64,000 bases of DNA from Hydrogenophaga sp. (GCF_030158645.1 NZ_JAOASO010000144.1:8815-72814), one strand, 5' to 3'; counted from the first letter of the stretch, positions 30,119 to 38,118 are shown. The notes: generated by a model from the sequence alone, not told the origin. Translations and numbers: made by a program.

Positions 30119-30442
30119 ATGAAACACTCCCCCTGTCTTCGACATGGCTTGCTGGCGCTGTCACTCAGCTGGGCCGCGTTGCCAGCTCTGGCCGACGATG
30201 ACTGCGATGCGCCGCTGAATCGCTGGCAGTCACGCGACGCCGTGCATCAGATGGCCGCCGCCCAGGGCTGGCAGATCCAGCGGCTGAAGATCGACGACGG
30301 TTGCTACGAAGTGCGCGGCACCGATGCCCTGGGCCGCACCTTCAAGGCCCGGATTGATCCGGAGACCCTGAAGGTCTTGAAGCTCAAGCAGGAAGACCAC
30401 CAACGAGACCGTGATCGCGATCGCGATCGCAAGGCCGAATGA
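30119..30442 (+). CDS. Secreted PepSY-domain protein
   Basis: Signal peptide, DDDC...WQSRDAV...GWQIQRLKIDDGCYEV...IDPETL. Confidence 0.85.
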   Translation: MKHSPCLRHGLLALSLSWAALPALADDDCDAPLNRWQSRDAVHQMAAAQGWQIQRLKIDDGCYEVRGTDALGRTFKARIDPETLKVLKLKQEDHQRDRDRDRDRKAE

Positions 30443-30467
30443 CCACCACCCCCACCGGAGCACCACC

Positions 30468-30944
30468 ATGTCCAGACCCCTTTTGACGATTGTGGCCACC
30501 GCTTGCGCGCTGGCCCTGCCCGCCCTGGCACACAGCCGCCCCCTCACGCTGACCGCCCAGCTCAAGAACTACGGCGGCGACGGCGCCTACATCGCGGCCT
30601 ACCTGACCGATGCCAAGGGCGCCTATGTGCGCACGCTGTGGGTCGCTGGCGGCAAGGCCAAATACCACCAGCACTTGTCCGACTGGAACCGCCTCTCGGC
30701 CGGCGACACCAAGCGGCTGGACGGCGTCACCGGCGCCAGCGTGGGCGCGGGGCGAACACTCAAGGTCACCGCCGAGCTGGCCGACGCGCTGATCGACGCG
30801 GGCTATGAGATCCGCATTGACGCCGCGGCAGAAGACATGCGCGACAGCCCGTCGGAAGTCCGCATACCGCTGTCCACCGCCAACGTGGGCAAGCCACAGC
30901 CCGGCAAGCAGTACATCCAGTCCGCGACCTTCGAGCTCAAGTGA
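30468..30944 (+). CDS. Secreted DUF2271 protein with flavinylation motif
   Basis: Signal peptide, YGGDGAYIAAYL, DGVTGAS at 30720-30740. Confidence 0.85.
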   Translation: MSRPLLTIVATACALALPALAHSRPLTLTAQLKNYGGDGAYIAAYLTDAKGAYVRTLWVAGGKAKYHQHLSDWNRLSAGDTKRLDGVTGASVGAGRTLKVTAELADALIDAGYEIRIDAAAEDMRDSPSEVRIPLSTANVGKPQPGKQYIQSATFELK

Positions 30945-30954
30945 AGGCGCTCGC

Positions 30955-33162
30955 ATGAGCTGGAAAGCCCTCCACCGCTGGCTGGGCCTGACCGTGGGCA
31001 CCCTGGCCGTGGTGCTGGGTGTCAGCGGCGCCCTGCTGGCGATCGACCCGGTGCAACAGGCTTGGCAGGCACCCGCCGCACCGCGCGATCTGCCGGTGGC
31101 CACGCTGGTGGAGCGCGTCACACGCACCGTACCCGGTGCAGAAGAAATTCGTCGTCTGCCCTCGGGTGCCATCGTGGTGTTCAGCTTTGCGGGTGACCAG
31201 CCACAAGCGTCTTACGTGGATCCGGCCGCTGGCCGGGTGCTGGGTGCCTGGCAAGCCTCGGCGCTGCCGCGCTGGGTGAAAAACCTGCACCGCTCGCTGC
31301 TGCTGGGCGACGCCGGTCGTTGGGGTGCCGCGGGCATTGCGCTGACCATGGCCTTGCTGTGCGCTTCTGCCCTGATGCTGCTGCTGCGCCGCATGGGCGG
31401 CTGGCGGCGGCTGGCGGCGCGGGTGCGCGGCTCGCTGGCGCAGCGCATCCATGTGGTCGCGGGTCGCGTGGTGCTCGCCGTTTTGTGCCTGACGTCGCTC
31501 ACGGCGCTGACCATGAGCGCATCGACCCTGGGGCTGGTCGCGCTGGACACCCGGGCCGAACCCGACGTGCTTTCTCAAGTCACTGGTCAGACCGCGCTGC
31601 CCGCCGCCCAACTGGCCGCGCTGCAAGGTGTGGCCATGCCGGATCTGCGCAAGCTGAACATTCCGAGCGCCAGCGATCCGCAAGACACCTGGAAGGTCAC
31701 CACCGCCCAAGGTCAAGGCTGGATCGACCGGTATTCCGGCCAGATGCTGGCCTGGCAGGACGCCACCCTCGCGCAACGCACGTACGACCTCGCCGTGGTG
31801 CTGCACACGGGCGAAGCGGCCTGGCCCTGGGCCGTGGTGCTGGGGTGCGTGGGCGCCAGCGTGCTGCTGTTCTGGCTGTCGGGCGTTGTGATCTGGTGGC
31901 AGGCTCGCCGGCTGGCGCCCCACATCACGGGCAATGCCCCGCTGGCGCAGGCCGACGTGCTCATCTACGTGGCCAGCGAAGGCGGCAGCACCTGGGCCTT
32001 TGCCCAAACGCTGCAAGACGCGCTGAGCCAGGTCGGCCACCGCGTGCACACCAGCGCGCTGGAGAACTTTCAAACCACGGCCGCCACGCGGCAGGTGTTC
32101 GTGCTGGCCGCCACCTACGGCGAAGGCCAGGCCCCGGCGCACGCCAGCCATGCCCTGGCGCACATCGCCAGGCTCAAGGCTGGCGCCGTGCCGGTGACGG
32201 TGCTGGGCTTTGGCGACCGGCAGTTCCCCGCCTTCTGCGCGTTTGCCCAGGCGCTCGATGAGACGCTGCGCACCCAGGGATGGCCCGCGCTGCTGCCCCT
32301 CGAATGCATCCACCAGCAATCGGGCCAGCAGTTCGCCCGCTGGGGCATTGCACTGGCTCAAGCCATGGGTGAGCCCTTGGTGCTCGAGCATGTGCCGTGC
32401 ACGCCGCCCACCACACCGCTCACGCTCACAGCGCGCCGGGACTACAACGGTGGGGCCGGGCCGGCCACGGCGATCCTGCGATTTGCCTGGCCGGCACAGA
32501 CCCTGGGCGCACGCCTGCGCGGGCACGGCCTGGCGCGGTTTGCAGCGGGCGATCTCGTGGGCATCGTGCCGCCGGGTTCGGCCGTGCCGCGTTACTACTC
32601 GCTGGCCTCGGGCCAGGAAGACGGCTTCCTGGAAATCTGCGTGCGTCAGATGGCGGGCGGTCTGTGCTCCACGCATTTGCTGGGCCTCCAGCTGGGGGAC
32701 AGCACCACCGCCTTCATCCGGTCCAACCCGGGTTTTGCATTGCCGCGAACGCGGCGGCCGGTGCTGCTGATCGGGGCGGGCACCGGCGTGGCACCGTTGG
32801 CCGGCTTCATCCGCCGCAACGACCGACGCACACCCATGCACCTGTACTTTGGCGGGCGCGACCCGGCGCGGGACTTTTACTTTGGCCCCGACATCCAGCG
32901 CTGGCTCGTTGAAGGCCGCCTGGCCACGCTGCACACGGCGTTCTCGCGCGTGCCCGATGGCGGCGGCTACGTGCAGGACGCTCTGCGACGCGACGCCGAG
33001 CAACTGCGTGACTGGGCCTCACAGGGCGCGATCGTGCGCGTTTGCGGCGGCCGCGCCATGGCGCAGGGCGTGGCCGAGGCGCTGGACGCGGTGCTGGCGC
33101 CGCTGCAACTGAGCGTGGCCAAGCTCAAAGCCAGCGAGCGTTATGCCGAAGATGTCTTCTGA
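30955..33162 (+). CDS. PepSY-associated TM protein fused to flavodoxin and FAD/NAD(P)H-binding reductase domains
   Basis: LHRWLG/LHRSL/LHTG heme-type His helices; YVASEGGST flavodoxin; PRYYSLAS, GAGTGVAP, LYFGGR; CysJ-like end YAEDVF. Confidence 0.88.
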   Translation: MSWKALHRWLGLTVGTLAVVLGVSGALLAIDPVQQAWQAPAAPRDLPVATLVERVTRTVPGAEEIRRLPSGAIVVFSFAGDQPQASYVDPAAGRVLGAWQASALPRWVKNLHRSLLLGDAGRWGAAGIALTMALLCASALMLLLRRMGGWRRLAARVRGSLAQRIHVVAGRVVLAVLCLTSLTALTMSASTLGLVALDTRAEPDVLSQVTGQTALPAAQLAALQGVAMPDLRKLNIPSASDPQDTWKVTTAQGQGWIDRYSGQMLAWQDATLAQRTYDLAVVLHTGEAAWPWAVVLGCVGASVLLFWLSGVVIWWQARRLAPHITGNAPLAQADVLIYVASEGGSTWAFAQTLQDALSQVGHRVHTSALENFQTTAATRQVFVLAATYGEGQAPAHASHALAHIARLKAGAVPVTVLGFGDRQFPAFCAFAQALDETLRTQGWPALLPLECIHQQSGQQFARWGIALAQAMGEPLVLEHVPCTPPTTPLTLTARRDYNGGAGPATAILRFAWPAQTLGARLRGHGLARFAAGDLVGIVPPGSAVPRYYSLASGQEDGFLEICVRQMAGGLCSTHLLGLQLGDSTTAFIRSNPGFALPRTRRPVLLIGAGTGVAPLAGFIRRNDRRTPMHLYFGGRDPARDFYFGPDIQRWLVEGRLATLHTAFSRVPDGGGYVQDALRRDAEQLRDWASQGAIVRVCGGRAMAQGVAEALDAVLAPLQLSVAKLKASERYAEDVF

Positions 33163-34126
33163 AACAGCGGTGACTGGCCAGCGCACCACCCTGCACGGTC
33201 CGGCCATGGGCACGCGTTGGTCGGCCACGATCGACGCTGACCTCTCCCTGGACCGGGAAGCCTTGCGCCAGGACCTCGCCGCTGCGGTGGAGCGGGTGGA
33301 CGGGCAGATGTCCCCCTGGAAGCCGAACAGCGACCTCCTGCGCCTGAACCGCGCGCCTGTGGACGCCTGGGTGGACCTGCCCGCCGACCTGCTGGCGGTG
33401 CTGGACTGTGCGCTCGATGTCCAGCGCCGGAGCGCGGGTGCCTTCGACCCGTGCGTGGGGGACCTGGTCGATGCCTGGGGCTTCGGCGCGGTGCGCGACA
33501 CACCCGACGCGGCGGCCATCACCGCCACGCGCCAGACCAGACCACGCACGGTGCACGAAGGCATCGAGTTGGAACGGCCCGCGCGCCGTGCCCGCAAGCG
33601 CGCGCCCTTGCAAGTCGACCTGTGCGGCATTGCCAAGGGCTACGCGGTGGACCGCATGGTGGCTGTGCTGCAACAGCACGGTGTGCGGCACGCACTGGCC
33701 GCGTTGGACGGGGAGCTGCGCACCGTGGGTGCGCAGGCCAACGGCGTGCCCTGGGCGGTGGCGCTGGAGCAACCCGAGGAAGGCCACCGTGCGGTGCGTG
33801 GTGTCATCGAGCTGGAGGACCTGGCCTTGGCCACCTCGGGCGACTACCGGCGCTGTCTGCAAGTGGGCGATGCGCGCCTGGCCCACACCATGGACCCGCG
33901 CCGCCGCGCGCCGGTGAACAACGCCGTGGCGTCGGTCACGGTGCTGGCGCGCACCGGCATGCAAGCAGACGCCTGGGCCACGGCCTTGCTGGTGGCGGGC
34001 CCCGACGAAGGTCTGGCCATGGCGCAGCGCATGGGGCTGGAGGTGCTGTTCCTGCTTCGCCGAGCCGAGGGCCTGGTGGAGCTGGGGCTGGGTCGGTTTG
34101 GCCGTTCCTCAACCCCGTCACGTTGA
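33143..34126 (+). CDS. apbE: FAD:protein FMN transferase (ApbE family), no signal peptide
   Basis: MGTRWS, FDPCVGDLVDAWGFG, DLCGIAKGYAVD, ATSGDYR, ADAWATAL. Confidence 0.9.
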   Translation: MPKMSSETAVTGQRTTLHGPAMGTRWSATIDADLSLDREALRQDLAAAVERVDGQMSPWKPNSDLLRLNRAPVDAWVDLPADLLAVLDCALDVQRRSAGAFDPCVGDLVDAWGFGAVRDTPDAAAITATRQTRPRTVHEGIELERPARRARKRAPLQVDLCGIAKGYAVDRMVAVLQQHGVRHALAALDGELRTVGAQANGVPWAVALEQPEEGHRAVRGVIELEDLALATSGDYRRCLQVGDARLAHTMDPRRRAPVNNAVASVTVLARTGMQADAWATALLVAGPDEGLAMAQRMGLEVLFLLRRAEGLVELGLGRFGRSSTPSR

Positions 34127-36760
34127 CGGCTTTCGACGGGCCCACTTGATGCCTTCAAACCACCACACGCTCAGCAAACCCAAGCCGCAGGCAGCGGCCA
34201 GCTCGTGGACAGGCAGCGGCGCGAAGCGCAGCACCCCCACCGCCCAGGGAACGTAGAGCGCCGCCAGCAACAAACCACTGGCCAGACCCAGCACAGCCCA
34301 CAGCGTGCGGTTGGGCGTGCGCAGCGTCGCCCACAGCGAGCGGGTGCTCGAACGGTTGGAGAGGATCAGGGCGAGGTTGGCCACGACCAGGGTGGCAAAC
34401 GCAAAAGCACGGGCCTCGGGCTCGGGGATGCGCGCACTGGCCCATGCAAATGCGGCCATGACGACGGCCAGCACACCCAACCCCTGAACCAGCGCGAGGA
34501 TGAGGGTGGTGCCGCCAAACAGGGGGGCGCTCGCATCCCGCGGCGGGCGCTGCATCACGTCGTCTTCTGCCGGCTCGTTCTCGAAGGCGACCGAGCAGGC
34601 CGGATCGATGATGAGTTCGAGCAGGGCGATGTGCATCGGGTACAGCAAGGCCGGCCAACCCAGCAACACCGGCAGCATCGCCATGCCGGCGATGGGCACG
34701 TGCACCGCCAGGATGTAGGACATGGCCTTGCGCAGGTTGTCGAAAATCCGGCGACCCAGCCGAACAGCGGCGACGAGGGACGCGAAGTTGTCGTCGATCA
34801 GCACCAGCGAAGCCGACTCGCGGGCCACGTCGGTGCCGCGCTGGCCCATGGCCACCCCCACATGGGCTGCGCGCAACGCCGGGGCGTCGTTCACGCCGTC
34901 GCCCGTCATCGCGACAATCTCGCCTCGGGCCTTCAGTGCCTGCACGATGCGCAGCTTCTGCTCGGGCGCGATGCGGGCGCAAACGCTGACGGTGGCCAGG
35001 CGCTCGCGCAGTGCCCCGTCGCCCAGTCCCGCGATCTCGTCGCCGGTCAGCACATCCCCGTCGCGCACGGCCAGTCCGGCCTGACGCGCGATCACCCGCG
35101 CCGTGGCCGGGTAATCGCCGGTGATCATCACCACCCGGATGCCAGCGGCGCGGCACTCGGCCACGGCGGCGGGCACCTCGGCGCGCACCGGATCGGCCAG
35201 ACCGAGCAAACCGACAAACTCGACGTCGAATCCGTGTTCTTCCGCTGGCCAGTCCTGGCCTGCAAACGATCCGCGCGCCACGGCCAGCACCCGCAGGCCC
35301 TGGGCCGCCAGCAACTCCACTGCGCCGCCGATGCGGGCTCTCTGCGCATCGTCGAGGTGGCACAGGTCCATCACCGCCTCCGGTGCACCCTTGGCGGCGA
35401 CGGTCTGGAGGCCATCACCCGGCGCGGCCCACACGTGCGACATGGCCCGCAGCGCCGGGCTGAGCGCGTAGGTGCGCACCAGGCGCCAGTCGTGATGCAG
35501 GTGTTCGGTGTCCGTGAGAAAGCGCTCCCCCAGCTGATGGAAAGCTTTCTCCATCGGGTCGAAGGGATCGACCACGCTGGCCAGGATCGCGAGTTCCAAC
35601 AGCGGGTGGAAGGCCTCGGGCAACCGGCTGTCGGCCAGCGTGTCCAGCGCCAGGCTTTCGGTCAGACCGAGACCACCGGCGACCAGGTGCGTCACCGTCA
35701 TGCGGTTCTCCGTCAGCGTTCCCGTCTTGTCGGTGCACAGCACCGTGGTGGCGCCCAGCGTCTCGATGGCGTTGATGCGCCGGGTGAGCACGCCCTCCCG
35801 GGACAACCGGCGTGCACCCAGCGCCGGAAACACCGTCAGCACCACCGGGTATTCCTCGGGCAGCAAGGCCATGGCCAGGGCAATGCCCGCCAGCAGCGCC
35901 TGCAGCCAGTCGCCCTGGATCACGCCGTGCGCCAGGACCAGCAGCAGGCTGAGCACCAGCGCCAGCAAGGCGAGGTGGCGCACCAGCCGGGCCGTCTGTT
36001 TCTGCAGTGGCGATCGCTCACTCGCCACGGCACCGAGCGATGCACCGATGCGGCCGATCTCGCTGCGCTCGCCGGTGGCGGTGACCCAGGCGAGCGCATG
36101 GCCCTGCACGATCAGCGTGCCCGCGTACACCCAGGGCAGATCGTCACCGCCCGGCACCTGGCGCGTGGCGCCGGACGCCTTCCCCGATGCAGCGCGTTCA
36201 TCGGCCCGGGCCACCCGCTTGCCCACCGGAACGGCCTCGCCGGTCAGCAGCGATTCATCGGCCCTCACGCCGTCGGCAGACACCAGCAGCGCATCGGCCG
36301 GAACCCGGTCGCCTTCGCTCAGCTTGAGCAGGTCGCCGCGCACCACGTCTCGCCCGGCGATGCGCAAGGGCCGACCGTCGCGCAGGACCAGGGCGCGCGG
36401 GCTCGTGAGATCGCGCAGCGCTTCGATGGCGCGCTCGGTCTTGCCCTCCTGGTACAGCGTGAGCCCCACGGTGACCACCACGAACCCGAAGAGCGTGAGT
36501 CCCTCCCGCAGGTCACCGAAGGCCAAGTACAGGGTGCCCGCTGCGAGCAGCAACAGGAACATCGGCTCGCGCACGGTGGCCCAGACCATCGACAGCAGGT
36601 TACGCCGCTGACCACCGGGCAAGGCATTGGGACCCTCTTGCGCCAGGCGTTGCGCTGCCTGGAATGTGGAAAGACCCCGGTCAAGATCCACCGCCGGCAC
36701 GGGCGTTTCAATGGGGGGGCCGGGTGGGACGTCGGCCCGGGCGGCTTGGCTGGTCGGCAT
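34118..36760 (-). CDS. Cation-transporting P-type ATPase
   Basis: DKTGT, TGEA, PEEYP, KGAPE, MITGD, GDGVNDAPAL. Confidence 0.93.
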   Translation of the reverse strand: MPTSQAARADVPPGPPIETPVPAVDLDRGLSTFQAAQRLAQEGPNALPGGQRRNLLSMVWATVREPMFLLLLAAGTLYLAFGDLREGLTLFGFVVVTVGLTLYQEGKTERAIEALRDLTSPRALVLRDGRPLRIAGRDVVRGDLLKLSEGDRVPADALLVSADGVRADESLLTGEAVPVGKRVARADERAASGKASGATRQVPGGDDLPWVYAGTLIVQGHALAWVTATGERSEIGRIGASLGAVASERSPLQKQTARLVRHLALLALVLSLLLVLAHGVIQGDWLQALLAGIALAMALLPEEYPVVLTVFPALGARRLSREGVLTRRINAIETLGATTVLCTDKTGTLTENRMTVTHLVAGGLGLTESLALDTLADSRLPEAFHPLLELAILASVVDPFDPMEKAFHQLGERFLTDTEHLHHDWRLVRTYALSPALRAMSHVWAAPGDGLQTVAAKGAPEAVMDLCHLDDAQRARIGGAVELLAAQGLRVLAVARGSFAGQDWPAEEHGFDVEFVGLLGLADPVRAEVPAAVAECRAAGIRVVMITGDYPATARVIARQAGLAVRDGDVLTGDEIAGLGDGALRERLATVSVCARIAPEQKLRIVQALKARGEIVAMTGDGVNDAPALRAAHVGVAMGQRGTDVARESASLVLIDDNFASLVAAVRLGRRIFDNLRKAMSYILAVHVPIAGMAMLPVLLGWPALLYPMHIALLELIIDPACSVAFENEPAEDDVMQRPPRDASAPLFGGTTLILALVQGLGVLAVVMAAFAWASARIPEPEARAFAFATLVVANLALILSNRSSTRSLWATLRTPNRTLWAVLGLASGLLLAALYVPWAVGVLRFAPLPVHELAAACGLGLLSVWWFEGIKWARRKPST

Positions 36761-36836
36761 GTCCCGCCTTTCTGGCTGAGCGTTCTGCTCGGGTGGGTTC
36801 CTCCGCCGCAGTGTGTTCGCGGCTGAAGGCGCTTCC

Positions 36837-36850
36837 TGGAGCATGCTCAA
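36837..36850 (-). promoter_or_regulatory. FNR-type box upstream of the P-type ATPase
   Basis: TTGAG-CATG-CTCCA on minus strand; CACACT -10 at 36815-36810. Confidence 0.5.
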
Positions 36851-36907
36851 TGCCACCGGGAGACTTCGCATTCTGCGGCCACGCGCGGGCAATGAACCGC
36901 ATCTTTG

Positions 36908-36921
36908 TTGCGCAGCGTCAA
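36908..36921 (+). promoter_or_regulatory. FNR-type box upstream of cytochrome c
   Basis: TTGCG-CAGC-GTCAA; CACAAT -10 at 36943-36948. Confidence 0.55.
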
Positions 36922-36987
36922 TGGTTCGACGATGGGAGTGGCCACAATGGCTGGCAGCTCAACCGCGATCGCCCGACCCCGGCTGAC

Positions 36988-37353
36988 GTGAAGCGAAGGA
37001 GTTTCCTTGTGTCCCTGGCGTGCAGCTCGCGGGTGTCCACCTTGCTCGTCGCGGCGGCGCTGGCAGGTCCTGCCACGGCCCAGGGTCGCGGTGAGTTGCT
37101 GTACACCGCGCATTGCAGCGCCTGCCATTCGGAACAGATCCACTGGCGCTCTGCGAAGGCCGTGACGGACTGGACCAGCCTCAAGGCCGAGGTCGTCAAG
37201 TGGCAGGGCATGGCCAGGCTGGCGTGGAGCGAAGACGATGTGACCGACGTGGCACGCTTCCTGAACGAGCGCATCTACCGTTTTGAGACACCCCTTGCAA
37301 CGGCGTCCAAAGTTCCACCGAGCCTGCGGGCGCCCGGTGCAGGCGCTCCCTAG
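36988..37353 (+). CDS. Small periplasmic monoheme cytochrome c
   Basis: GTG start, signal ending PATA-Q, GELLYTAHCSACH. Confidence 0.8.
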   Translation: MKRRSFLVSLACSSRVSTLLVAAALAGPATAQGRGELLYTAHCSACHSEQIHWRSAKAVTDWTSLKAEVVKWQGMARLAWSEDDVTDVARFLNERIYRFETPLATASKVPPSLRAPGAGAP

Positions 37354-37404: not shown

Positions 37405-38118
37405 ATGGACATGACCATGAGATCCCTGCACAGCCACACCGAACGCCACCGGACGGACCGCATCGGCTGGTTGCGCGCTGCGGTGCTGGGTGCCAACGAT
37501 GGCATCGTCTCCACCGCCAGCCTGGTGGTCGGCGTGGCCGCCGCCGGATCGAGCCACAGCAACGTCCTGATCACAGGCGTGGCGGGGCTGGTGGCGGGGG
37601 CGATGTCGATGGCCGCGGGCGAGTACGTGTCGGTGCATTCACAGGCGGACACCGAGGCCGCCGACCTGCGGCGCGAGAAAGCGGAACTCGCGGCGGACCC
37701 GGTGGCGGAGCAACGCGAGTTGGCGTCGATCTACGTGGGCCGGGGGCTGGGGCCCGACCTGGCGCAGCAGGTGGCCGCACAGCTGATGGCGCATGACGCG
37801 ATCGGTGCCCATGGGCGCGACGAGCTCGGCATCTTCGACGCCCACCTGGCCCGCCCGATTCAAGCGGCGCTGGCCTCTGCGGCCAGCTTCGCCCTGGGCG
37901 CCCTGCTTCCGCTGGCCGTGACCGCCCTGGCCCCCGAGCGGGGCGTGATTGCCTGGGTCACCGGGCTTTCGCTCGCCTTCCTGGCCCTGCTGGGTGCTGT
38001 TGCCGCGCAGGTGGGCGGTGCCCGGGTGCTCGCCGGCGCCTGGCGCGTGTTTTTCTGGGGCGCTCTGGCCATGGGCATCACCGCGGCGGTGGGGTCCCTG
38101 TTTGGTGCGGTCGTGTGA
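37405..38118 (+). CDS. VIT1/CCC1 family iron/manganese transporter
   Basis: LRAAVLGANDGIVS, GAMSMAAGEYVSV, ARPIQAALASA. Confidence 0.93.
   Translation: MDMTMRSLHSHTERHRTDRIGWLRAAVLGANDGIVSTASLVVGVAAAGSSHSNVLITGVAGLVAGAMSMAAGEYVSVHSQADTEAADLRREKAELAADPVAEQRELASIYVGRGLGPDLAQQVAAQLMAHDAIGAHGRDELGIFDAHLARPIQAALASAASFALGALLPLAVTALAPERGVIAWVTGLSLAFLALLGAVAAQVGGARVLAGAWRVFFWGALAMGITAAVGSLFGAVV

Follow-up and report, generated by a model that had tools for sequence, protein, structure and literature searches.

A Hydrogenophaga flavinylation operon in which ApbE lacks a signal peptide and its likely target, DUF2271, is secreted

The window, the whole 64,000-nucleotide stretch of Hydrogenophaga sp. 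DNA that was analysed, contains on its + strand four tightly coupled genes. Their products are two secreted proteins, one PepSY_2 and one DUF2271, a PepSY_TM/flavodoxin/FAD-NAD reductase fusion and ApbE. The first-pass annotation had described these elements, each of which lies at the position it gave, and their tight coupling, which was confirmed by intergenic gaps of 25 nt and 10 nt and by an apbE start that overlaps the reductase stop by 20 nt. The features are as follows.

30119..30442, + strand: PepSY_2, a small secreted protein of 107 aa (Pfam PF13670, E 5e-26) with the Sec-type leader MKHSPCLRHGLLALSLSWAALPALA
30468..30944, + strand: DUF2271 precursor, 158 aa, predicted ApbE substrate (Pfam PF10029, E 3e-34)
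30468..30530, + strand: DUF2271 Sec (SPase I) signal peptide MSRPLLTIVATACALALPALA, predicted cut before HSRP, Kyte-Doolittle 10-residue maximum 2.53
30720..30740, + strand: flavinylation motif DGVTGAS, DUF2271 residues 85-91; xGVTGAS or xGITGAS in 64/64 close loci
30955..33162, + strand: reductase fusion, 735 aa, with PepSY_TM, Flavodoxin_1, FAD_binding_6 and NAD_binding_1 in one ORF
30955..31920, + strand: PepSY_TM membrane domain (PF03929, E 1e-33, residues 6-316), four predicted hydrophobic helices
31963..32307, + strand: flavodoxin-like (FMN) domain, predicted cytoplasmic (PF00258, Flavodoxin_1, E 2.6e-12, residues 337-451)
32527..33162, + strand: FAD/NAD(P)H ferredoxin-reductase-type domain, CysJ/CPR-like (PF00970 residues 539-583; PF00175 residues 605-707, E 2.9e-10)
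33110..33112, + strand: in-frame TGA, which closes the reading frame of apbE 11 codons before its first ATG
33143..33162, + strand: the apbE start overlaps the reductase 3' end (YAEDVF*) by 20 nt, a sign of translational coupling
33143..34126, + strand: leaderless ApbE (FAD:protein FMN transferase family), 327 aa (PF02424, E 4e-77)
33884..33886, + strand: ApbE His248, aligned to the V. cholerae catalytic residue His257 (LAHTMDP vs YSHIIDP)

Essentially all of the 80 related loci with enough flank have the same gene order, with PepSY_2 preceding DUF2271 in nearly all of them, and because this four-gene cassette recurs the arrangement is not due to chance. The overlap is also conserved, in that the ApbE N-terminal MPK[MT]S[SF] is an alternate frame of the conserved reductase C-terminus.

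We assign the operon with high confidence to the NAD-binding subtype of the PepSY-like flavinylation system, a published kind for which Meheust et al. (2021, eLife, PMC8238504) reported 3220 clusters, 2833 with DUF2271 and 1077 with an NAD-binding fusion. The class is defined by a PF03929 or PF16357 protein at most five genes from an ApbE, DUF2271, DUF3570 or FMN_bind gene. In this operon PF03929 (E 1e-33) lies in the gene between DUF2271 and apbE, PF00175 is fused to the PepSY-like protein in the same ORF, as in the NAD-binding subtype, and the substrate motif [ST]GA[ST] is present as DGVTGAS in DUF2271. The published clusters share with this locus a PepSY_TM protein with an NAD-binding domain, a DUF2271 with [ST]GA[ST], ApbE, the occasional VIT1 neighbor, and the proposed flow of electrons from NAD(P)H to the periplasm, so that the earlier description of a flavinylation operon moving NAD(P)H electrons across the membrane is supported and agrees with the published model. 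There is no architectural difference and the Hydrogenophaga locus is one of that class, although the small PepSY_2 gene falls outside the published description and DUF4198 is missing here. The cluster type is already published and what is new is the localization problem only: the authors locate flavinylation outside the cytoplasm without commenting on the missing signal of the cluster ApbE, and no discussion of it was found in the literature searched.

The best solved relatives of the FAD/NAD(P)H ferredoxin-reductase-type domain are CysJ and P450-BM3 reductase (E 1e-22), but identity of the fusion with CysJ was rejected, as TIGR01931 reached 135.6 bits where 668 is required and covered the C-terminal part only. 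Candidate heme ligands in the PepSY_TM domain are His7, His112, His166 and His284; across 65 PepSY_TM sequences His7 and His112 are invariant, and the other two are His in all sequences with a residue in that column. FoxB-type di-heme reductases are characterized by four transmembrane helices and two pairs of conserved heme-ligand His. A PepSY_TM domain with conserved His is also present in FoxB/HiuB/VciB (PDB 7ABW; bioRxiv 10.1101/2021.01.28.428567; PMC12424826) and in CrpH of Bordetella (PMC13038864), and periplasmic metal or siderophore reduction is the likely output common to both, but those proteins stand alone, without a fused NAD(P)H-flavin module, DUF2271 or ApbE. A sequence search with the reductase fusion did not find FoxB.

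The DUF2271 protein has the Sec-type leader and the DGVTGAS motif that had been noted for it. In 64 loci the leader is kept as MSKPLLT..ACALALPALA/HSRP (the slash marks the cut), with an n-region of MSR or MSK and a single K/R; no twin-arginine motif was found in the DUF2271 leaders of these 64 close loci, and in the other cluster type 3/35 start MRRLL. DUF2271 leaders are of the Sec rather than the Tat type. The last Ser of DGVTGAS is the predicted FMN-phosphoester site, by analogy with NqrC/NqrB, and no other D-G-x-[ST]-G-A-[ST] was found in the whole proteome. The AF2 model of DUF2271 is a beta-sandwich (pLDDT 75.5) that had no significant match in the PDB by fold or by sequence; the model puts the motif at the end of a low-confidence, flexible loop, a predicted position that would favor attachment before export. 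The neighboring PepSY_2 protein has DDDCD past the predicted cleavage site and an RD repeat at its C-terminus.

Signal peptides were called heuristically, by Kyte-Doolittle hydrophobicity, lipobox and RR rules rather than SignalP, with calibration on ApbEs outside DUF2271 clusters. Most of those have lipoboxes (LAGC, LSGC, LVAC), Sec leaders or twin-arginine leaders, and their values are mostly 2.6-3.5, or 1.7-2.3 for the twin-arginine ones, which are recognized by the RR motif. The Hydrogenophaga ApbE begins MPKMSSETAVTGQRTTLHGPAMGT, 21 residues ahead of the MGT motif, and the top 10-residue window in its first 50 residues reaches 0.75, versus 2.5 in the DUF2271 leader. No lipobox, RR or hydrophobic stretch was found at its N-terminus, and no hydrophobic segment is evident at its C-terminus. 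The frame upstream of the TGA at 33110-33112 is Arg-rich and looks non-coding, and most of the 80 relatives have a stop at a similar short distance before apbE. The reported lack of a hydrophobic leader, lipobox or upstream in-frame start therefore holds, and there is a genuine paradox, in that ApbE is leaderless while its likely target is secreted.

The enzyme itself appears intact. It matches PF02424 over profile positions 1-266 of 266 (259.8 bits, cut-off 25.6), whereas it scores 182 against a cut-off of 498 with the NCBIfam ApbE equivalog and is therefore not the enterobacterial orthologue. An aromatic Trp (QMSPW) occupies the position that we take to be the transferase/pyrophosphatase switch, Tyr60 in E. 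coli and Asn55 in Treponema. The match to Vibrio cholerae ApbE (6nxi, E 5e-49) pairs query residue 13 with residue 6 of the crystal construct, which has no leader, and at the position equivalent to His248 the mutant chain 6nxj has Gly. Given the full-length family match, the retained catalytic His and the similarity to the V. cholerae enzyme, this ApbE would appear to be an active transferase. The classical lipoprotein ApbEs of Vibrio cholerae, Salmonella, E. coli and Pseudomonas stutzeri (PDB 6nxi, 3pnd, 2o18, 5mgy; E 1e-43 to 5e-49) have the same fold, the catalytic His and the same kind of target motif, but they have a signal and serve NqrB/C, RnfD/G or NosR, whereas the Hydrogenophaga ApbE has none, hence a presumably different localization, and is dedicated to DUF2271.

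The leaderless state is inherited and not an accident. In about 76 of 80 close loci ApbE begins M[PS]K[MT]S..L[HN]GPTMGT with a stop just upstream, and 47/51 DUF2271-linked ApbEs in a 401-genome phylum sample are without a leader. The maximum-likelihood tree recovers a fusion-type clade (100/100) and a clade from PepSY_TM-only clusters (98/86), joined at 82/81 beside lipoprotein ApbEs; the leaderless ApbEs form one or two old clades adjoining the classical lipoprotein enzymes. The PepSY_TM-only clusters, in which the PepSY_TM protein has no cytoplasmic domain, have equally leaderless ApbEs with a conserved N-terminal R-V-L-I-P...PP motif. DUF2271 leaders that accompany a leaderless ApbE are less hydrophobic than those in genomes with a remote ApbE (p 4e-4), a weak and confounded argument for flavin attachment before export.

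No second ApbE was found in the Hydrogenophaga genome, which is 92.8% complete and could thus be missing one, nor were FMN_bind or NqrB/RnfD proteins found in it; DUF2271 is the only recognizable target of its ApbE. The cluster ApbE is likewise the sole ApbE in 32 complete genomes, and FMN_bind or NqrB/RnfD proteins occur in 0/32 of these. Another 14 genomes encode further ApbEs besides the leaderless cluster enzyme; 13/14 have FMN_bind proteins, and in 12/13 of the latter a further ApbE has a lipobox, Sec leader, membrane anchor or Tat leader. In the sampled genomes the leaderless cluster ApbE never stands in for an exported one, which fits compartment-limited action such as that shown for the two Klebsiella ApbEs (reviewed in PMC12052999); the same partition would be expected of a leaderless enzyme that left the cytoplasm by another route but acted on DUF2271 alone. 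The cytoplasmic ApbE of Klebsiella pneumoniae (Bertsova et al., 2014, as summarized in PMC12052999) is likewise leaderless, with its range set by compartment, and its target on that account is a soluble cytoplasmic fumarate reductase with an FMN_bind domain, whereas the Hydrogenophaga genome has no FMN_bind protein and its only target bears a Sec leader. No substrate of the Klebsiella type was found, the genome having neither FMN_bind nor any other motif-bearing ORF.

The first-pass annotation had named three ways out of the paradox: addition of FMN before export, co-export of ApbE, or a separate cytoplasmic target. The last is unlikely, given that no [ST]G[AS][ST] motif was found in the reductase, no other motif in the proteome and no FMN_bind or NqrB/RnfD protein in the genome, and that the PepSY_TM-only clusters are equally leaderless. 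Co-export is also unlikely, because the leaders of DUF2271 and PepSY_2 are Sec-type, with a single K/R, and Sec does not transport folded partners. Attachment before export is the option that would remain, and since ApbE is leader-free and its target exported, the flavin is probably attached at that stage. Our best reading, offered tentatively, is that pre-DUF2271 may receive its FMN in the cytoplasm and be exported in modified form. In published work on another species, leader-less DUF2271 was flavinylated when it and a cognate ApbE were both produced in the cytoplasm of E. coli, but not after a Thr-to-Ala change (PMC8238504), so the reaction works in that compartment; a short peptide tag that consists of the motif alone is also accepted by ApbE (PMC12052999), which makes an unfolded precursor a plausible substrate.

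The mechanism that we infer extends to the compartment in which ApbE acts, the order of events, the hemes and the acceptor. One inner-membrane protein, with a cytoplasmic diflavin reductase module and a four-helix PepSY_TM domain probably holding two b-hemes, would pass electrons from NAD(P)H to FAD, FMN and the hemes, and from there to the FMN on DUF2271 and a periplasmic acceptor. For this acceptor, studies of related systems suggest Fe(III) or a ferric chelate, and Cu(II) is possible. DUF2271 would be a small periplasmic beta-sandwich holding FMN covalently by the last Ser of xGVTGAS. The leaderless ApbE would act in the cytoplasm on the DUF2271 precursor before or during its targeting to SecYEG, and the small (158 aa), still unfolded FMN-bearing chain would then be threaded through Sec and lose its leader. 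An FAD export route would be unnecessary, because FAD and Mg2+, the substrates of ApbE, are plentiful in the cytoplasm.

We know of no covalent flavin that is attached ahead of Sec export. Proteins that carry cofactors normally use Tat, and set against this norm the non-Tat leaders of DUF2271 count against attachment before export. Two further points weigh on the same side: cytoplasmic biotinylation of exported fusion proteins is a poor competitor of normal Sec export, and the cytoplasmic ApbE of Klebsiella reportedly leaves membrane-inserted NqrC unmodified in vivo.

ApbE might instead flavinylate an already exported DUF2271, in the manner of classical ApbEs, after reaching the outer face of the membrane or the periplasm without an N-terminal signal, possibly through an internal or C-terminal signal or by docking to the PepSY_TM protein, but this seems unlikely. 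Every secreted ApbE target characterized so far receives its flavin outside the cytoplasm (PMC12052999, PMC8238504), and the conserved R-V-L-I-P...PP of the PepSY_TM-only clade would agree with such a route, as would 18 DUF2271 loci in the sample that have no cluster ApbE. The 17 genomes concerned all have FMN_bind proteins and an ApbE elsewhere, the N-termini of two of these remote ApbEs were read and both have a leader, and DUF2271 is therefore presumably also modifiable after export. However, ApbE has no hydrophobic segment near its N-terminus and none evident at its C-terminus, the alignment to the crystal construct makes it essentially the bare catalytic fold, and the Sec-type leaders of its partners rule out Tat hitch-hiking. 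Some genomes should then also depend on the leaderless ApbE for NqrC, RnfG or NosR, and 0/32 do; the Cys count of the leaderless clade, 3.1 versus 1.4 in signal-bearing ApbEs (p 0.005, weak and confounded), fits a reducing compartment.

Translational coupling of apbE to the reductase rather than to DUF2271, the unusual phosphate loop SEGGST in the flavodoxin-like domain, and the FAD pyrophosphatases known in the ApbE family (PMC4767422) could indicate another role for the leaderless enzyme, either supplying or attaching FMN to that domain or acting as a Treponema Ftp-like FAD pyrophosphatase, with DUF2271 unmodified or otherwise modified. We consider this improbable, as the reductase is without the motif, clusters with no cytoplasmic domain on the PepSY_TM protein have equally leaderless ApbEs, and the Trp at the switch position is aromatic. 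Moreover, xGVTGAS/xGITGAS is kept in 64 loci and is the only such motif in the proteome, the genome has no second ApbE to modify DUF2271, and in another species DUF2271 is flavinylated by a cognate ApbE (PMC8238504). The paradox would vanish if the hydrophobic N-terminus of DUF2271 were a non-working export signal or an inverted anchor, so that DUF2271 and ApbE met in the cytoplasm and the system stopped short of the periplasm, but that is the only merit of a very improbable idea: the leader is a textbook Sec/SPase I one (positive n-region, 15-residue h-region, ALA/HS) kept in 64 loci, Pfam calls the family periplasmic, DUF2271 proteins related to this one have been classed as secreted (PMC7190382, PMC8238504), and a cytoplasmic acceptor would leave the transmembrane heme domain pointless.

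With somewhat more reserve than for this locus, we suggest that the whole clade of DUF2271-dedicated ApbEs in alpha-, beta- and gammaproteobacteria might work in the cytoplasm on a Sec precursor, with the FMN-bearing protein threaded through SecYEG. If true, it would be the first example of a flavin being attached covalently ahead of Sec export, and would account for a periplasmic flavoprotein equipped without FAD export. The same enzyme-substrate pair also occurs as single-polypeptide ApbE-DUF2271 fusions with a signal peptide (PMC8238504; Alteromonas, PMC7190382; loci L129, L132, L133 and L135), in which both parts are exported behind one leader. The ApbE domains of these fusions fall elsewhere in the tree, and the fusions are the opposite answer to the same compartment problem.

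The first-pass annotation described a run of four tightly coupled genes for a PepSY protein, DUF2271, a membrane/flavodoxin/FAD-NAD reductase fusion and ApbE, and Pfam searches bore out the domains and the gene coordinates the coupling: the intergenic gaps are 25 nt and 10 nt, and the last two genes overlap by 20 nt. The features of the cassette and its downstream flank are:

30119-34126, + strand, four-gene cassette
30119-30442, + strand, PepSY_2 gene (Pfam PF13670, E 5e-26)
second gene of the cassette, + strand, DUF2271 gene (Pfam PF10029, E 3e-34)
30720-30740, + strand, DGVTGAS motif of DUF2271 (residues 85-91), read from the sequence
third gene of the cassette, + strand, reductase fusion, 735 aa (Pfam PepSY_TM residues 6-316, Flavodoxin_1 337-451, FAD_binding_6 539-583, NAD_binding_1 605-707)
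33110-33112, + strand, in-frame stop TGA closing the apbE frame upstream, read from the sequence
fourth gene of the cassette, + strand, ApbE gene (Pfam PF02424, 266/266 profile positions matched, E 4e-77)
34118-36892, - strand, P-type cation ATPase (E1-E2 type, Cation_ATPase_N and Cation_ATPase_C), convergent to apbE
36865-37353, + strand, ORF with CSACH (a CXXCH haem c motif) and no Pfam match, between the P-type ATPase and VIT1 genes
37405-38118, + strand, VIT1-family iron/manganese transporter, 3.3 kb downstream of apbE

The cluster type is already published. Meheust et al. (2021) catalogued 3220 PepSY-like clusters, 2833 of them with DUF2271 and 1077 with a PepSY-like protein that also has an NAD-binding domain, showed that a DUF2271 of Amantichitinum ursilacus is flavinylated on the motif Thr by its cognate ApbE, and proposed that electrons from NAD(P)H reach the periplasm and serve to reduce iron (PMC8238504). 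The window's locus is one more member of this class, and its electron path is covered by the published model. What appears to be new is the conserved leaderless ApbE with DUF2271 as its sole target; in the searchable literature we found nothing on a leaderless cluster ApbE as a clade-wide conserved trait with this single target, and a 2025 review names just two kinds of cytosolic ApbE, the one from Klebsiella and those that form domains of fumarate reductases in eukaryotes (trypanosomatids) (PMC12052999).

According to the FoxB structure, as cited in 10.1101/2024.03.13.584918, PepSY_TM is a di-haem membrane domain. Four helices are predicted for the window's copy, and His7 and His112 were invariant across 65 PepSY_TM sequences. 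The C-terminal half of the fusion is CysJ/CPR-like, scoring far under the CysJ equivalog cut-off. The PepSY_2 protein carries DDDCD directly after its predicted cleavage site and an RD repeat at its C-terminus (RDRDRDRDRKAE), and the second PepSY protein found at other loci has acidic/basic tails that resemble the latter. A genomic island was considered and rejected, as the GC content of the cassette (70%, vs 66% for the genome) is not distinctive.

The ApbE begins MPKMSSETAVTGQRTTLHGPAMGT, and the absence of a hydrophobic leader, a lipobox or an upstream in-frame start, as first annotated, was confirmed: the top 10-residue hydrophobicity window in its first 50 residues is 0.75, vs 2.5 for the DUF2271 leader. 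A hidden leader or earlier start was rejected, since the TGA at 33110-33112 closes the frame and the upstream frame is Arg-rich, non-coding-looking and not leader-like. When it is aligned to ApbEs of known structure, its residue 13 falls opposite residue 6 of the V. cholerae construct, which lacks a leader, so the protein is essentially the mature fold plus a 12-residue polar extension, and His248 aligns with the catalytic His257 of the V. cholerae enzyme.

The same cassette, in the same gene order, was found in 80 related loci (Burkholderiales and a few other orders), about 76 of which have an ApbE starting M[PS]K[MT]S...L[HN]GPTMGT, in most cases preceded within a few codons by a stop. These conserved first residues arise from the conserved C-terminal end of the reductase gene (YAEDVF*) read in another frame, and the gene overlap is thus itself conserved. 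For a broader view, 401 genomes of the phylum were searched for DUF2271 and 69 loci were fetched, which fell into two cluster types: type A, with a PepSY_TM protein lacking cytoplasmic domains and the DUF2271 motif DGVSGAT or a variant, and type B, the fusion type of the window, with the motif xG[VIL][TS]GAS. An ApbE was encoded within 8 kb of DUF2271 in 51/69 loci, and by hydrophobicity, lipobox and twin-arginine rules 47 of these 51 ApbEs have no leader; the remaining four are one-polypeptide fusions of ApbE and DUF2271 behind a single signal peptide (L129 and L132 in one genome, L133 and L135 in two others; ORFs of 492-549 aa ordered signal peptide-ApbE-C-terminal DUF2271). As a check, the same rules were applied to ApbEs outside DUF2271 clusters; most of these have a lipobox (LAGC, LSGC, LVAC), a Sec leader or an RRxF[IL] Tat leader, and three are leaderless: L162 in genome G039, and L318 and L319 in G055, an Undibacterium. 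The ApbE of L319 adjoins a small FMN_bind ORF, and the two may be enzyme and substrate of a Klebsiella-like cytoplasmic pair.

In a maximum-likelihood tree, type B ApbEs were monophyletic (100/100), as were type A ApbEs (98/86), and the two types grouped together with weaker support (82/81) beside lipoprotein ApbEs, while the signal-bearing fusions formed their own clade (100/100) elsewhere, far from the leaderless enzymes. Because the leaderless types form clades beside lipoprotein ApbEs, loss of the leader is, as judged from this phylogeny, old and has been kept since. Type A ApbEs (L083, L093, L094, L099, L118 and others; consensus of alignment A1) share a short N-terminal motif, R-V-L-I-P and then a Pro-rich stretch, just before the MGT fold start; its length is too small and its Pro content too high for it to be a signal peptide.

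Gene content indicates what the leaderless enzyme acts on. The window's genome (92.8% complete) has a single ApbE, and neither an FMN_bind protein nor NqrB/RnfD was found in it; in a six-frame scan of this genome D-G-x-[ST]-G-A-[ST] occurred only in DUF2271, the other matches being sigma-54 activator GAFTGA loops or out-of-frame ORFs, and no cytoplasmic motif turned up in the reductase fusion, including with the relaxed pattern [ST]G[AS][ST]. The leaderless cluster ApbE is likewise the sole ApbE in 32 complete genomes, none of which encodes FMN_bind or NqrB/RnfD (0/32), while FMN_bind proteins are present in 30/31 genomes that have an additional or a remote ApbE (Fisher p 2e-17, with kinship ignored). 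Thirteen genomes combine a leaderless cluster ApbE with FMN_bind proteins, and all 13 have another ApbE; in 12 this other enzyme has a lipobox, a Tat leader, or a Sec leader or membrane anchor, and in the remaining genome, G055, the FMN_bind gene adjoins a different leaderless ApbE. From this partition we infer, on gene content, that the leaderless ApbE serves DUF2271 alone and that none of these genomes depends on it for classical periplasm-facing targets. DUF2271 also occurred without a nearby ApbE at 18 loci, and 17/17 genomes concerned have FMN_bind and an ApbE elsewhere; the N-termini of two of these remote ApbEs (L151, L152) were read, and both have a leader.

The predicted target is itself secreted. 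The DUF2271 N-terminus reads MSRPLLTIVATACALALPALA followed by HSRP, and both the Sec-type character of this leader and the DGVTGAS motif proved correct as annotated. Type B leaders (MSKPLLT..ACALALPALA followed by HSRP; 64 loci) have a single basic residue and no twin arginine, and only three type A leaders start MRRLL. Tat export was accordingly rejected for the window's cluster type, and because the leaders are Sec-type, Tat export of a folded, cofactor-loaded DUF2271 is not the answer here. Reading TAC followed by Ala in the leader as a lipobox was also rejected, as Ala occupies position -3, too short an h-region precedes the Cys, and some homologues have Ser in place of this Cys. That the DUF2271 leader is non-functional seems to us highly improbable. 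An AlphaFold2 model of the mature protein is a beta-sandwich (pLDDT 75.5) with the motif placed where a low-confidence loop ends; a fold search with the model returned only generic beta-sandwiches (best E 0.04, TM < 0.47), and neither fold nor sequence search gave a significant match to a solved relative. The best 120 matches listed in a DUF2271 profile search of proteins were all close Oxalobacteraceae-type relatives. Many type A proteins (L084, L086-L091, L097, L100, L104-L107 and others) have DGVTGPT, DGVSSAT, DAVTSAT or DGVTQPT instead of [ST]GA[ST], keeping the last Thr followed by Arg/Lys, so either the published motif is looser than stated or those copies are unflavinylated.

How a leaderless enzyme serves a secreted target admits several explanations, and we tentatively take attachment of FMN to the DUF2271 precursor before translocation as the most likely: the cytoplasmic ApbE would modify the precursor still carrying its Sec leader, and the modified chain would then be translocated. 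This is favoured because the enzyme would share the cytoplasm with FAD and Mg2+, because a cognate ApbE-DUF2271 pair reacts in the E. coli cytoplasm (PMC8238504), because ApbE accepts a bare motif tag (PMC12052999), and because the precursor is small, with its motif in a loop modelled as flexible. Higher Cys content in the leaderless ApbE clade and less hydrophobic DUF2271 leaders where the partner ApbE is leaderless are weak, confounded pointers in the same direction. Against it, we are not aware of any earlier case in which a covalent flavin passed through Sec; when Sec substrates (biotin-acceptor fusions, for instance) are modified in the cytoplasm, the reaction is a poor competitor of their export, and membrane-inserted NqrC is reportedly not modified by the cytoplasmic Klebsiella ApbE. 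The partition of ApbE and FMN_bind proteins would also look the same for an enzyme that left the cytoplasm by an unrecognised route and was simply specific for DUF2271.

Non-classical export or membrane docking of ApbE appears unlikely. We consider it less probable again that ApbE has another function, for example in the service of the flavodoxin-like domain or in FAD hydrolysis; this explanation is weakened by type A clusters, which lack a flavodoxin-like domain, and by the aromatic residue (Trp in QMSPW) that the window's enzyme has at what we take to be the position separating transferases from pyrophosphatases.

To our knowledge, the route of FAD to periplasmic ApbE in most Gram-negative bacteria is an open supply problem of extracytoplasmic flavinylation, which attachment of FMN before export would avoid in this clade. 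If attachment before export is correct, SecYEG would be shown able to pass a flavinylated chain, and the accepted rule, by which enzyme and target must share one side of the membrane once exported, would change. Export of ApbE by an unrecognised route would likewise be a protein-export finding. The question bears on the design of flavin-tagged secreted proteins and on the assembly of widespread PepSY-like reductase systems, such as the Caulobacter PepSY_TM-only type, whose cluster also has DUF4198, is Fur-regulated and is needed under EDTA stress, a metal-chelator stress (10.1101/2024.10.16.618771).

Iron is our best guess for the electron acceptor of the window's system, by analogy with studied relatives; VIT1 neighbours were reported by Meheust et al. 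(PMC8238504), and a Bordetella PepSY_TM protein is involved in copper supply (PMC13038864). Upstream of the window's PepSY_2 gene there was no Fur-like site (11/19 mismatches), and the searches found no widely shared 9-mer as a common operator there, and no riboswitch, other RNA family or promoter consensus. Cassette flanks differ between genomes, with recurrent neighbours that include an OmpR-type regulator and kinase, a second small PepSY, an MsrQ-like ferric-reductase-type protein, cytochrome b561 and the P-type ATPase, the last beside the cassette in 14 loci (83-89% identical in five). Cassette proteins are 60-93% identical across Polaromonas, Hydrogenophaga, Thiobacillus and Rhodanobacter among the 80 related loci, with unrelated flanks, a pattern that suggests horizontal movement of the four genes as a unit. 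Divergent upstream flanks of these loci encode an OmpR-type response regulator in 16, a histidine kinase in 10, a second small PepSY in nine, an MsrQ-like protein with FAD/NAD domains in 10 and a cytochrome b561-like protein in six. This possible neighbourhood for regulation and redox functions is missing from the window.
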